A stretch of DNA of 31,093 nt from Flavobacteriaceae bacterium (GTDB lineage Bacteria; Bacteroidota; Bacteroidia; Flavobacteriales; Flavobacteriaceae). Location of the stretch: NCBI GenBank assembly GCA_013214425.1, contig JABSPN010000002.1, positions 1 to 31,093 on the forward strand. Direction: 5' to 3'. Positions 16,034 through 20,941 of this stretch are shown here, one piece after another (within the stretch, counting starts at the first letter, position 1; every line of letters starts with the position of its first letter). The notes under the pieces were generated by a model. That model saw nothing but the letters and a program-made list of their open reading frames with translations, was not told where the DNA came from and did no database searches. The position numbers and the translations under genes were made by a program.

Positions 16034-16546
16034 CTATCTCTTAAACCAACTCGAATATTCAATATAATTATTGGCAATGCGATTAATTTCTCCTGAAATC
16101 AATTCCGGAGACACATCTTTTACTTTTTTAGCGGGAATACCAGCGTAAATACTACCAGCCTCTACTCTAGTATTTTTTGTTACTACAGCTCCAGCTGCGA
16201 TTATAGAATTGCTTTCTATCACACAATCGTCCATCACTATACTTCCCATTCCAATGAGTACATTATCGTGAATGGTGCATCCGTGGACAATAGCATTATG
16301 ACCAATAGATACATTGTTCCCTATGGTTGTCGGACTTTTCTCAAAAGTAGCGTGAATTACGGCTCCATCCTGTATGTTGACCTTATCTCCTATTCTAATA
16401 AAATGGACATCACCGCGTATTACAGCATTAAACCATACACTACATTGATTTCCAATCGTTACTTCTCCAACTATAGTTGCATTTTCAGCAATAAAACAAT
16501 CGTCTCCAATTTCAGGATATTTATCACGTACAGGTTGTATAATCAT
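16034..16546 (-). CDS. Gamma carbonic anhydrase-family protein (YrdA/CaiE-like)
   Basis: Hexapeptide beta-helix repeats, VWFNAVIRGD, three metal-ligand His (VIHA, IGHNAIVHGC); start overlaps the LytTR gene stop. Confidence 0.93.
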   Translation of the reverse strand: MIIQPVRDKYPEIGDDCFIAENATIVGEVTIGNQCSVWFNAVIRGDVHFIRIGDKVNIQDGAVIHATFEKSPTTIGNNVSIGHNAIVHGCTIHDNVLIGMGSIVMDDCVIESNSIIAAGAVVTKNTRVEAGSIYAGIPAKKVKDVSPELISGEINRIANNYIEYSSWFKR

Positions 16547-17277
16547 TATTTAAAATAGCTTAATAATTCGGCCTTCTTACTTGGTGCTACTTGAATTTCT
16601 TTGTTAGTTTGCAGTACCACACTTCCTCCTTTTCCTTTTCGGTATTTGACAACCGCATTGACATTCACCAGGAAAGATTTGTGTACACGCACAAAATTAG
16701 ACGCCTTGAGCGCTTCTTCAAAATACTTTAATGTTTTGCTCACTAATATTTTTCTGTTCTCCAGATAGATCTCTGTATAATTATCGTCAGCCTTACAATA
16801 CACAATATCCTGAATGTTCAGTACTTCAAATCCATCTTGTTGCGGAATGGTAATCTTACCTTCAACGATTTTACTAGATGGCTGTATCACATTATTCTCT
16901 AAGGCATTTTCTTTTTGCTTAATGACAAAAACATAATCAACTGCCTTAATCAATTCATCAATAGAAATAGGTTTCAGAAGATAATAAGACGCATGATTGT
17001 TTAGGGCATCTAAAGCGTAGTGATCGTAGGCGGTAACAAATACGGTTTCAAAGGTTCTGTCTCCTACTCGCTCCAGTAAATCGAAAGCATTTCCGAAGGG
17101 CATTTCCACATCAAGAAAAACCAGGTCTAACTCATTATTCCTAATCAGGATCAGAGCATCTTCAATATTAGAAGCCTCTCCCAGTAGATTTACTTTAGGG
17201 CAATACTTGGTAATATAATTGGTCAATATTTCACGGCTTTTGGCCTCATCTTCTACAATTATCGCTTTTAGTTCCAT
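16546..17277 (-). CDS. LytTR-family response regulator
   Basis: Receiver IVEDE / LVFLDVEMP / FVTAYD / YLLKP; LytTR domain KADDNYT, FVRVHKSFLVN. Confidence 0.96.
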   Translation of the reverse strand: MELKAIIVEDEAKSREILTNYITKYCPKVNLLGEASNIEDALILIRNNELDLVFLDVEMPFGNAFDLLERVGDRTFETVFVTAYDHYALDALNNHASYYLLKPISIDELIKAVDYVFVIKQKENALENNVIQPSSKIVEGKITIPQQDGFEVLNIQDIVYCKADDNYTEIYLENRKILVSKTLKYFEEALKASNFVRVHKSFLVNVNAVVKYRKGKGGSVVLQTNKEIQVAPSKKAELLSYFK

Positions 17278-17282
17278 TCTAG

Positions 17283-19571
17283 TTAGTCTTTTTTCAGTGT
17301 TAGTATTACTTTAGTTCCGGTGTGGTTGGGTTTATCTACGATCGCTACATCCACCTTGTCGTCATACATTTCATTCAAAATAGCGACTCTCTTTTTGATA
17401 TTTCCCATTCCTTTTGATTGTTGTTTCTTCTGATGCTGTGTTTTTAACTCTTTAGATTTCTCTCTTCCTATTCCGTTATCTTCAATACTGATTTGTATTA
17501 CTGAAGAAGTGACTTGTTTTACATGAATCATAAGAGATCCTTTTTCTTCTTTATAACGCAATCCGTGCCACACGGCATTTTCCACATAGGGCTGAAGCAA
17601 CATGGGTGGGATTTGAAAATCTGCTACCTCTATATCTTCATCAACATGTATTTCATAATCAAACTTATCCTGAAACCTGAAATGTTCCAGTTTGGTATAA
17701 ATCTCCAATAATTCAATCTCTTTTGATAACGGGATAAAATCCTGTTCAGAGTTCTCTAAAACACTTCGCATCAATTGAGAGAATTCACTTAAATAACGAT
17801 TTGCTGTACGCTCATCATTGGTAGCGATAAAACTATTCACCGAGTTTAACGCATTAAAAATAAAATGCGGATTCATCTGACTTCTCAACTGTTTTAAAGC
17901 CAATAAATTATTATTCAGCTTTTGTTGCTTCACGTTCCTGTACATATAGTAAGCCAACAGCGAGATTAAGAACAATCCGAACAATAATGAATAAATGATT
18001 GTCTTTTGGGTTTTATTGCTTTCTAAAGCCAGCTGAGAATCTTTCATCGCCAGGTTCAGTTTTCCTTCAGACAGCTCTCTATCTTTTTCTAAGCTTGTAA
18101 TCCTATTCTGACTCTTGGTTATTCTCTGATTAAATCTTGAGGCCTGAACAATCTCTTGCTCTTTCTTGATATATAGTTTCTCAACCAATGCAACATAATT
18201 CTTATAGATTTCATAAGCTGTTACAAAATCTAATTGCTCATCGTAGGCTTTGGAAAGTTTTTTAGTGGCATCTTTTTCAACTATCAAGTCCTCCCGTTTA
18301 TTCGCTTCTTTAATACTCTTTTCTAGATACGGAATCGCTTCTTTAAACTTCGATTGCTTGAAATAAGCATCACCAATTTTATAGTTTAACTTTTGAGGTG
18401 AAATTGTATTGCTTACACTGTTATCATTTATAAGAAAACCGCTATTCCCAAGGCCTGATATAGTGAAAACAGAATCAGGTTTCGGTAATTCTTTTACTTG
18501 CTCTAGATTTCTTTTCCTCAATTCTATCTCTTCATCAAAACGATTGTTTTGGCTTAAGAAGTCGGCTACTTTATCACTTTCCTGAATAGATCGTTGTATA
18601 TTTTCACTTTCAGCGAGCTGAAGTGAATTATTATAATAATCATCAGCTTCTGCATATTTTCCTTCCTGAGCAAAAACATCACCTATTTTAGAGTTTAAGT
18701 CGGTAATCTTAGGTGTAATCAAATGTTTTTCAGCAATAGTCAATCCTTTTCTATAATTATTTTCTGCTGAAGGCTCTTGTTTCAAGGCTATATAAGCATC
18801 TCCTAAAGCTTCATAATACTGAACCTTTTGGTAATTAGACAATTTACTTTTCTTGATATTTTTTAAGGTTTGAATGCTTAAATTATACTCTCCATTTAAG
18901 TAATACGCTTTCGCTAACTGTAACTGATTAGTAGGAGTTGAAAATAAGTTTTTACTCAGCCTAAAATTACTAATCGCCAAGTCATACTGGTTCCAATACA
19001 AATAAATCTCACCTAATTTCTCATAAGCTCTGGACACATTAGATTTACTTAACTCATTCTCCAGAGAAATCTCCAAGGCTTTTGATACATAATCAATACT
19101 AGTTGCAGCGTCTTTTTTAAGTGAAGAATTAGCTTTATAGAGATTACTATTAAACTCATCCATAACCTCGCCCGTGACAGCTTGCTTATACTTTTTATCT
19201 TCTTTGACTACTGCAACGCCTTTCTCTATATATATCGTAAGTTTTTCTTCAGACGTGACTTTATATACCACCTTTTCAAAACTTGGATGTGTGATTTCTA
19301 CTTCATCACCCAAAGCTGCTTGAATTTTAAACTCCCCTAATGAATTGGTTTTGGTAAACTCTGTATTAGCTATAGAAAGATCGGCGTCTTTAACACCTTC
19401 CCAGGAGTCTTTCATCTTAACCACTCCTCTTAGTGTAAACATGTTTTCTCTTTCGAATGGCTTGTTCTTCTTATTAGTATTACCGGCATCATTAAACTGA
19501 CCATAGGCTAGTCCGAAAAGCATCAGAAAGACAACTGTTATCTTATATGTAAAAGTGGTATTCTTATTCAT
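17283..19571 (-). CDS. LytS-type sensor histidine kinase with periplasmic carboxypeptidase-regulatory-like and TPR domains
   Basis: Signal peptide from ATG 19571 (ORF-track start 19622 is probably too long), TPR-like helices, TM segment TIIYSLLFGLFLISLLAYYMY, LRSQMNPHFIFNALN H-box, ENAVWHG and IEDNGIG boxes. Confidence 0.93.
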   Translation of the reverse strand: MNKNTTFTYKITVVFLMLFGLAYGQFNDAGNTNKKNKPFERENMFTLRGVVKMKDSWEGVKDADLSIANTEFTKTNSLGEFKIQAALGDEVEITHPSFEKVVYKVTSEEKLTIYIEKGVAVVKEDKKYKQAVTGEVMDEFNSNLYKANSSLKKDAATSIDYVSKALEISLENELSKSNVSRAYEKLGEIYLYWNQYDLAISNFRLSKNLFSTPTNQLQLAKAYYLNGEYNLSIQTLKNIKKSKLSNYQKVQYYEALGDAYIALKQEPSAENNYRKGLTIAEKHLITPKITDLNSKIGDVFAQEGKYAEADDYYNNSLQLAESENIQRSIQESDKVADFLSQNNRFDEEIELRKRNLEQVKELPKPDSVFTISGLGNSGFLINDNSVSNTISPQKLNYKIGDAYFKQSKFKEAIPYLEKSIKEANKREDLIVEKDATKKLSKAYDEQLDFVTAYEIYKNYVALVEKLYIKKEQEIVQASRFNQRITKSQNRITSLEKDRELSEGKLNLAMKDSQLALESNKTQKTIIYSLLFGLFLISLLAYYMYRNVKQQKLNNNLLALKQLRSQMNPHFIFNALNSVNSFIATNDERTANRYLSEFSQLMRSVLENSEQDFIPLSKEIELLEIYTKLEHFRFQDKFDYEIHVDEDIEVADFQIPPMLLQPYVENAVWHGLRYKEEKGSLMIHVKQVTSSVIQISIEDNGIGREKSKELKTQHQKKQQSKGMGNIKKRVAILNEMYDDKVDVAIVDKPNHTGTKVILTLKKD

Positions 19572-19667
19572 ATCATCGATTGTAAACTTACACACTTTAT
19601 ACCAAAGAATAAAATAGCCCACTCGTAAAAAAGCCTTAAATCGACTAATTTTCCATTCAAAATAACC

Positions 19668-19721
19668 TGTTCACTCATTAAAATGGATTGTTTACTCATT
19701 CAGAGTCCCTACAACCTCATT
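19668..19721 (+). promoter_or_regulatory. Three direct repeats at 21-bp period, probable LytTR binding site
   Basis: CTCATT at 19674, 19695 and 19716; the first two extend to TGTT(C/T)ACTCATT. Confidence 0.75.
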
Positions 19722-19771
19722 TTTGGTTTTTCTTAGCATAACCTGACGCTACATTTACAAAAAAAACAATT

Positions 19772-20941
19772 ATGAAGAAATTAAATAGAATTCTCGCATT
19801 AATCCTTATAATTAGCTTCTTTTCTTGCCAGGCAACTACAAAAGAAGAAAAAGCAATCGCAAAAAATACAACATATTCAGCTATTGAAGTGATTGAAGAC
19901 AATACAATTCAAGTTGCCCTATTATTGGACACAAGTAATAGTATGGATGGCTTAATCGATCAAGCCAAAGCGCAACTATGGCAAATTGTTAACGAACTTT
20001 CTTATGCAAAATGTGAAGGAGAAAGACCTAACTTAGAAATTGCTCTATACGAATACGGTAACGACAACTTATTAAAAAAAGATGGGTACATAAGACAAGT
20101 ATTAGCTTTTACAAAAGATTTAGATGATATCTCTGAGAGACTTTTCTCACTAACTACTAATGGAGGAAGTGAGTATTGCGGCCAAGTAATACAAACTTCT
20201 TTAGATAAGTTGCCATGGAGAAAAGGTAAGAACGATCTAAAATTAATTTTTATTGCCGGTAATGAGCCTTTTACTCAGGGACCAGTGAACTATAAAGACG
20301 CTTCTTTAAATGCTAAAGAAAAAGATGTGACGATTAATACGATTTTTTGCGGTGAATACAACCATGGGATTTCTGGAATGTGGCAAGATGGAGCTTTACA
20401 AACTAGTGGAGATTATATGTCGATAGACCATAATGTAAAAACTGTTCATATTCCGTCTCCTTATGATGATCAAATATTACAGTTAAATATTCAATTAAAT
20501 GGAACGTATATTTACTACGGAAGACATGGGAAGAAAAAAGCAACGGCTCAGGCGGTTCAAGATTCTAATGCGCAAGGATATAGTGAAGCCAACGCGGTAA
20601 GCAGAACAGTAACAAAGAGTTCTGGGTTTTACCAAAACTCATCTTGGGATTTAGTTGATGCAGAAGAAGAGGAAGATTTCGATTTAAAAGATGTTGACAA
20701 GAAATCATTACCTGAAGATTTACAAGGTAAAAGCTTAAAAGAAATAGAAAAAATCATCGAAGAAAAAAGGGCTGAAAGAAAGAACATTCAAAATCAAATT
20801 CAGGAGTTAAACCAAAAAAGATTGGAGTTTATTGCAGAAAAAAAGAAAGACAATGCTTCTGATCAAAACCTGGAGAATGCATTAATCAATACGATTAAAA
20901 AACAGGCCTCTCGTAAAAACTATACTTGGAAAAAGAACTAA
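19772..20941 (+). CDS. von Willebrand factor A-domain lipoprotein with C-terminal coiled coil
   Basis: Lipobox FFSC; MIDAS DTSNS in VALLLDTSNSMDGLI; IALYEYGN, TNGGSEYCG, IFIAGNE; charged helical C-terminus. Confidence 0.88.
   Translation: MKKLNRILALILIISFFSCQATTKEEKAIAKNTTYSAIEVIEDNTIQVALLLDTSNSMDGLIDQAKAQLWQIVNELSYAKCEGERPNLEIALYEYGNDNLLKKDGYIRQVLAFTKDLDDISERLFSLTTNGGSEYCGQVIQTSLDKLPWRKGKNDLKLIFIAGNEPFTQGPVNYKDASLNAKEKDVTINTIFCGEYNHGISGMWQDGALQTSGDYMSIDHNVKTVHIPSPYDDQILQLNIQLNGTYIYYGRHGKKKATAQAVQDSNAQGYSEANAVSRTVTKSSGFYQNSSWDLVDAEEEEDFDLKDVDKKSLPEDLQGKSLKEIEKIIEEKRAERKNIQNQIQELNQKRLEFIAEKKKDNASDQNLENALINTIKKQASRKNYTWKKN

Follow-up and report, generated by a model that had tools for sequence, protein, structure and literature searches.

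The window, by which we mean the whole 31,093-nt stretch of DNA analysed here, contains two divergent transcription units of a Flavobacteriaceae bacterium, one leading with a sensor kinase gene and the other with a gene for a vWA lipoprotein. The genes concerned are the following:

16034-16546, minus strand: hexapeptide-repeat (gamma-carbonic-anhydrase-like) protein, the third gene of the kinase operon, with a match to Pfam Hexapep
16546-17277, minus strand: response regulator of 243 aa, with matches to Pfam LytTR (1.2e-21) and Response_reg (2.1e-16), and the acceptor Asp in the context LDV
17283-19571, minus strand: sensor kinase of 762 aa, with matches to Pfam His_kinase (PF06580) and HATPase, and by hydropathy a signal anchor and a transmembrane segment at 522-540
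19772-20941, plus strand: vWA lipoprotein of 389 aa, with a match to Pfam VWA, the lipobox FFSC and the MIDAS motif DTSNS

The kinase has a periplasmic TPR region of roughly 500 aa. We place the kinase start at the ATG at 19571, because the open reading frame beginning with the GTG at 19622, which would add 17 codons, crosses a promoter block that is conserved in the relatives. Orthologues of the kinase separate cleanly from its paralogues (E < 1e-136 versus > 1e-70). Of the 150 other genera of the family, 82 have a kinase orthologue and 73 a vWA orthologue. The response regulator (67-75% identity) is encoded directly 3' of the kinase in 28 of 29 loci, and the hexapeptide gene (71-85% identity) follows the regulator in at least 21 of the 29 relatives' loci. 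In most loci the kinase and the vWA gene are divergent neighbours. In the window, convergent PorP/SprF and large adhesin genes are located 3' of the vWA gene. The genome as a whole encodes 18 LytTR proteins. One marine-sediment run contains the stretch and is probably its source, and small shares of the stretch also occur in marine metagenomes and in three metatranscriptomes, as seen at the contig level.

The region between the kinase and the vWA gene holds a repeat array and two promoter regions, composed of the following features:

19582-19600, minus strand: conserved 19-mer at the kinase promoter, which reads as a -7 box, TAAGTTTAC, 10 nt before the kinase ATG
19659-19679, plus strand: R1, the distal repeat unit, with the core TTCACTCATT at 19670-19679, scoring 20.0 bits with a relatives-only matrix and in register with R1 of all relatives
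19680-19700, plus strand: R2, repeat unit with the core TTTACTCATT at 19691-19700, scoring 19.0 bits
19701-19721, plus strand: R3, the promoter-proximal repeat unit, with the degenerate core CAACCTCATT at 19712-19721
19727-19731, plus strand: -33-like T-run lacking the consensus G, conserved in 52 genera at offsets +5 to +9 after R3 and placed 18 nt upstream of the -7 box
19750-19758, plus strand: -7 box of the vWA promoter, TACATTTAC, starting exactly 28 nt after R3

The hexamer CTCATT starts at positions 19674, 19695 and 19716 of the plus strand, which gives the exact 21-nt period that an earlier, sequence-only reading of this DNA had described. That reading had also extended the first two copies to TGTT(C/T)ACTCATT, and these are indeed present as TGTTCACTCATT at 19668-19679 and TGTTTACTCATT at 19689-19700. 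A repeat search of the window aligned the 21-nt units 19659-19679 and 19680-19700 with 76% identity. The full repeat unit is 21 nt long with the consensus nAAA-N7-TTyACTCAtT and is present three times in the array, where a 10-nt core and an 11-nt spacer add up to the exact 21-nt period in the window and in 118 arrays of the family. R3 is weak in this genome and provides about 4 of the 43.4 bits scored by the triple.

Within the 31-kb window, CTCATT is the sole 6-mer that has three occurrences at an equal period (periods 12 to 30), where first-order Markov simulations give a chance expectation of 0.087 such triples per window and of 0.01 at period 21. The triple 6-mer alone is thus suggestive against chance, and the comparative data on the array we consider decisive. 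The region 19300-20000 has no Rfam match on either strand at E values up to 1. A second short repeat, ATAACCTG, is found twice, at 19662-19669 in the spacer of R1 and at 19738-19745 just 5' of the -7 box; as a pair it is without conservation in the relatives and is probably due to chance.

Conservation of the repeats in syntenic relatives had been put forward as a check on the proposed operator, and the array passed it decisively, the 21-nt phase and the 28-nt offset to the -7 box being kept without gaps in dozens of genera. We built the unit matrix from 66 units of other genera, leaving out the site under study and its genome. The information of the matrix lies mainly in the core TTyACTCA, with 2.3 bits at an invariant C and a strong signal at CA, and less of it lies in the A-tract. 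With this relatives-only matrix, the array ranks first in the 3.4-Mb genome at 43.4 bits, followed by independent sites of 27.1 and 23.8 bits, where the reversed matrix reaches a maximum of 16.8 bits and random positions have a mean of -54.9 +/- 13.2 bits.

With the -7-like box as the anchor of the upstream regions, the three units can be aligned gaplessly in 22 other genera, and a kinase-anchored search raises this to 52 genera. In all, we collected 118 distinct Flavobacteriaceae arrays, each of them with exactly three in-phase units. The mean unit scores over the 52 genera are 9.7 bits for R1, 13.0 for R2 and 13.4 for R3, making the promoter-proximal unit the best conserved one among the relatives. 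The in-phase positions adjoining the array score -13.5 and -17.5 bits compared with a background of -17.6, and the array therefore consists of exactly three sites. A fourth in-phase unit and inverted copies nearer the kinase promoter were sought, and none were found.

A search of named genomes returned at least 595 matching stretches and assigned the system to the Flavobacteriaceae, and the matches listed provide 79 usable loci. A triple of at least 20 bits is located upstream of the vWA gene in 71 of these 79 loci from the matches listed, and in 0 of 79 with the reversed matrix; in most of the eight failing loci the array is at or past the edge of the 1.2-kb flank. The nearest genera among the matches listed are Aureitalea, Halomarinibacterium and Altibacter, and the matches listed also include Aquimarina, Winogradskyella, Lacinutrix, Psychroserpens, Tenacibaculum, Polaribacter, Maribacter, Kordia and Dokdonia. 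The intergenic module as a whole, about 170 bp in length, aligns gaplessly even between genera with only 50-65% identity in their proteins.

The cores of the three units also appear to vary together. The core agreement among the three units of one genome exceeds that of permuted sets (z 3.8, 0 of 2000 permutations, a significance inflated by the non-independence of the relatives) and is clearest at the A/C position preceding the invariant C, with no such within-genome agreement at the spacer positions (z 0.6). Because the relatives are not independent, we take this concerted core variation as supportive. Other families of the Bacteroidia carry vWA orthologues with 44-57% identity, and three 21-nt-phased repeats are present upstream of the vWA gene in about ten of 23 loci from these families, in a class-level tally that includes one unpublished genome, on which none of our conclusions depends. 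Their cores have drifted to TTCACyAAGT or TTCCCTAAGT, and a -7 box often follows about 28 nt further on. These drifted triple repeats outside the Flavobacteriaceae suggest that the module is older than the family.

The housekeeping-type promoter of Bacteroidota is composed of a -33 element TTTG and a -7 element TAnnTTTG, about 19 nt apart. A scan for sigma-70-type promoters gave matches at chance level, and that consensus is not applicable to Bacteroidota. The proximal unit of the array ends 28 nt 5' of a TAnnTTT(A/G) -7 box, and TAnnTTT is found at this exact offset from R3 in 65 of the 71 named loci from the matches listed, and in 40 of 42 other-genus loci carrying the vWA gene. Between the end of the proximal core and the T-run there are 4 nt, and the core overlaps neither the -33 nor the -7 element.

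The sequence-only reading had regarded TACATTTA at 19750-19757 as a non-consensus box of a weak promoter. Its position and its sub-consensus character stand, but the box is no oddity, TAnnTTTA being common in this genome. Both TAnnTTTG and TAnnTTTA peak 20-40 nt upstream of long ORFs here and TACATTTA is placed 22 nt before the vWA ATG at 19772, which makes it a credible -7 box belonging to the weaker variant. The TTTG that was said to abut the third repeat copy is present at 19722-19725, 24 nt from the -7 box; it is not conserved, and the -33-like element kept in the relatives is instead the T-run at 19727-19731.

Putting these observations together, we propose with a probability of about 0.8 that the array is the operator of the neighbouring LytTR regulator and that it activates the promoter of the vWA operon. 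The geometry that the sequence-only reading had called LytTR-like, a 10-nt core with an 11-nt spacer directly upstream of a sub-consensus promoter, corresponds to what has been described for such operators (PMC4847170, PMC4227749, PMC11347149). In its sequence-level features the array agrees throughout with LytTR operators, and we therefore assign it to this known class as a candidate site. Because the genome encodes 18 LytTR proteins, the assignment to the neighbouring regulator is one by synteny. We infer the identity of the binding protein, the sign of regulation and the transcript starts.

In the proposed mechanism, the TPR kinase would phosphorylate the LytTR regulator, which would then occupy three head-to-tail sites centred near -47, -68 and -89 of the vWA promoter, positions obtained by setting the final base of the -7 box to -7. 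The bound regulator would recruit or stabilise RNA polymerase at a promoter with a T-run lacking the G as its -33 element and an A-variant as its -7 box. The output would be the switching on of the vWA lipoprotein gene or, in many relatives, of a gene for a small secreted protein together with vWA. The array would probably also feed back on the divergent kinase/regulator/hexapeptide operon, whose promoter box is found at a helically phased distance.

The position of the array relative to the first gene of the rightward operon is informative. In 12 loci another first gene is inserted between the kinase and the vWA gene, encoding a SIMPL/DUF541, DUF4349, rhodanese or ARPP-1 protein, the last of these being the first gene in one of the loci. 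The inserted first genes all encode signal peptides, and the vWA gene is always located 3' of them. The array and the -7 box stay adjacent to the kinase in these loci, upstream of the new first gene, and the element therefore belongs to the divergent promoter and not to the vWA coding sequence.

The loss of the vWA gene points in a further direction. Taking the lack of a match at E 1e-20 as absence of vWA, we found 12 genera that have a kinase orthologue and no vWA, ten of which were examined. Both vWA and the -7 box are gone in six of the ten, where the terminator of the PorP/SprF gene abuts the T-run, and the three units persist at 127/128 nt from the kinase box. The similar deletion junctions in the six genera make a single ancestral deletion likely. 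The core information of the vWA-less arrays is 8.9 bits, compared with 9.5 +/- 0.7 bits in equal-sized subsamples of vWA-bearing arrays and 1.1 +/- 0.3 bits in random 21-mers; the spacer positions are saturated in this comparison. The array is thus undecayed in the vWA-less genera and is therefore selected independently of vWA.

On the other side of the array, the kinase-side block (17-19 nt, TAAACwTACGCACTTTA) exceeds the rest of the intergenic region in conservation. The TAAGTTTAC box within it is only 10 nt 5' of the kinase ATG, and the leader would therefore be very short (about 5 nt). The block forms a quasi-palindrome, GTAAA-N9-TTTAC, whose arms correspond to the first half of the repeat core (TTTAC). 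Its conservation goes far beyond the needs of a -7 box, and with up to 2 mismatches allowed the genome has no other copy. The block may represent a second binding site of a different kind. We also considered the 17/19-mer as a general promoter or regulon motif and rejected it, its 3-mismatch matches being below the reversed control.

Counted from the kinase-side block, the end of R3 is always 127/128 or 137/138 nt away, and here it is 138 nt away (19584-19721). The 127/128-nt class is the majority, the 137/138-nt class comprises this window and about 11 named loci among the matches listed, and the two spacing classes are one helical turn apart. As the array is kept where vWA is missing and is phase-locked to the kinase promoter, it is probably not solely a vWA switch, and we consider that it probably autoregulates the kinase operon. 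The suggestion of a LytTR operator driving the vWA gene, made from the sequence alone, thus appears supported by conservation and synteny as far as the operator is concerned, but the array probably does not act on vWA alone, and elsewhere it precedes another gene followed by vWA.

We tentatively consider, at somewhat under even odds, that the array is a phase-locked bidirectional LytTR enhancer, which would serve both the vWA promoter and, from about -90 to -140 and in the opposite orientation, the kinase operon. Such an enhancer would explain the undecayed array in genera without vWA, the quantised distance to the kinase box and the gapless module of about 170 bp. Action on the kinase promoter from about -90 to -140 in reverse orientation would be unusual for LytTR activators.

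The same two observations, the undecayed array in the six genera lacking vWA with its -7 box and the kinase-box distance quantised at 127/128 or 137/138 nt, could also be read to mean that the array solely autoregulates the kinase/regulator/hexapeptide operon, with the vWA promoter merely adjoining and uncontrolled. This we regard as unlikely in view of the rightward promoter. The exact 28-nt offset between R3 and the rightward box in 65 of 71 loci from the matches listed is kept whichever gene is first, the weak -33 element of this promoter is what would be expected of activator dependence, and the sites are only 4 nt from the rightward -33 element, compared with about 45 nt from the -33 region of the kinase promoter.

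Activation of the vWA promoter by the neighbouring regulator remains our preferred reading, and the sign of this regulation has to be weighed as well. Binding of the regulator to the array with a repressing or anti-activating effect on the vWA promoter would have a precedent in CoxC, a LytTR protein which represses from three direct repeats (PMC11347149). The operator of CoxC, however, overlaps the -35 box, whereas here 4 nt separate the proximal repeat core from the -33-like T-run downstream of it, and the core promoter, like those activated by AgrA (PMC4227749), falls short of the consensus, so that repression seems to us rather improbable.

The regulon search suggested by the sequence-only reading was carried out over the whole genome; this array came out on top, and a few weaker sites sharing its promoter offset ranked below it. 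Unit pairs number 17 at a spacing of 21 nt, compared with 1-8 at the spacings from 15 to 29. Among the 11 best pairs, a -7 box follows exactly 28 nt downstream in four, 49 nt (28 + 21) downstream in two and 59 nt downstream in one, and none of the control pairs has a -7 box at 28 or 49 nt. When single-unit matches were plotted against their distance to TAnnTTTG, they did not rise above the reversed control, the spikes at 28 and 49 nt being seen only with 21-nt pairs or triples. Seven contigs carry weaker sites of two or three units that have this core and the 28-nt offset; those on three contigs precede genes for secreted CarboxypepD_reg-like proteins, those on two further contigs precede VIT/vWA protein genes, and those on the last two have no clear target gene. 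None of the 18 LytTR genes of the genome is located on these seven contigs, and a comparable site was found at none of the paralogous LytTR loci of this genome. The weaker sites are candidate members of the regulon or candidate targets of paralogous LytTR regulators.

These results bear on whether the repeats might be bound by a different reader, such as one of the other LytTR proteins among the 18 or a protein unrelated to them. The number of LytTR proteins in the genome and the weaker same-core sites on the seven contigs without a LytTR gene would fit such a reader. Against it, the array accompanies the orthologous kinase/LytTR-regulator pair in every locus examined, including the vWA-less ones, the core drifts along with the system across the families of Bacteroidia, and the paralogous LytTR loci of the genome are without a comparable site, which together make another reader very improbable. 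The last alternative, that the repeats are a chance similarity or a phased A-tract curvature without a sequence-specific reader, could point to the helix-phased A-tract opening each unit and to the expectation of about 0.09 triple 6-mers within the window alone, but we consider it effectively refuted by conservation already, the information being mainly in the core TTyACTCA and not in the A-tract, and 118 array versions being conserved with concerted variation of their cores.

The operator assigned here to the neighbouring LytTR regulator can be compared with the characterized ones. According to the published rule, a LytTR binding site consists of two repeats, direct or inverted, of 9-11 nt with 11-13 nt between them, which gives a period near 21 nt, and no consensus is common to such sites (PMC4847170). 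In Staphylococcus aureus, AgrA binds repeats upstream of the divergent and suboptimal promoters P2 and P3 (PMC4227749), which resemble the present locus in their direct repeats, their location in a divergent intergenic region and their suboptimal promoters. AgrA controls its own operon and the divergent transcript (PMC4227749), and we propose that the array described here may act alike. Unlike the agr region, where each promoter has a separate pair of repeats, the present region has a single three-site array, its core is unrelated and its promoter is of the Bacteroidota -33/-7 type. Furthermore, AgrC senses a peptide, whereas sensing falls here to a LytS-type kinase (PF06580) with a periplasmic TPR region.

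Three direct repeats are known from RcoM1 of Paraburkholderia xenovorans and CoxC of Afipia carboxidovorans, which bind triple repeats of about 8 nt with spacers of 12-13 nt, all three being needed for efficient binding (PMC11347149). RcoM1 and CoxC are one-component gas sensors with haem-PAS or MHYT domains, in contrast to the two-component regulator at this locus, and they have TTCNNGCA or TTNNNGCN as their core. In CoxC, a further difference is that the operator overlaps the -35 box and represses. The YpdA/YpdB and BtsS/BtsR systems of Escherichia coli share the combination of a LytS-type kinase (PF06580) with a LytTR regulator, and YpdB binds a direct repeat of a 10-nt motif (PMC4847170). 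These systems have two sites and not three, their sensors are membrane embedded without a periplasmic TPR domain, their targets are transporter genes, and their control region is not a conserved divergent one. The mechanism proposed here is thus not new in kind, and the candidate operator joins the types known from AgrA, YpdB, RcoM1 and CoxC. What seems less usual is that one three-site array would be shared by two divergent promoters and that its spacing to the promoter of the regulator itself is quantised.

In the literature searched, we found no description of a binding site for any LytTR regulator of the Flavobacteriaceae, even though LytTR regulators are numerous in such genomes, with 18 in this one. 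Activator-dependent promoters are poorly defined in Bacteroidota. The locus is a well-constrained model for a LytTR regulator working with the -33/-7 polymerase, offering a consensus, an exact offset and natural variants with an inserted gene, a lost gene or a 10-bp shift in spacing. In Flavobacterium johnsoniae, a pair of adjacent genes for a LytTR regulator and a histidine kinase (FJOH_RS09515 and FJOH_RS09520) became mutated in every one of five lines that had coevolved with Burkholderia thailandensis, but not in any line kept in monoculture (PMC10197871). The array described here would link a widespread periplasmic TPR sensor kinase to an output, the MIDAS-bearing vWA lipoprotein, in hundreds of marine species.
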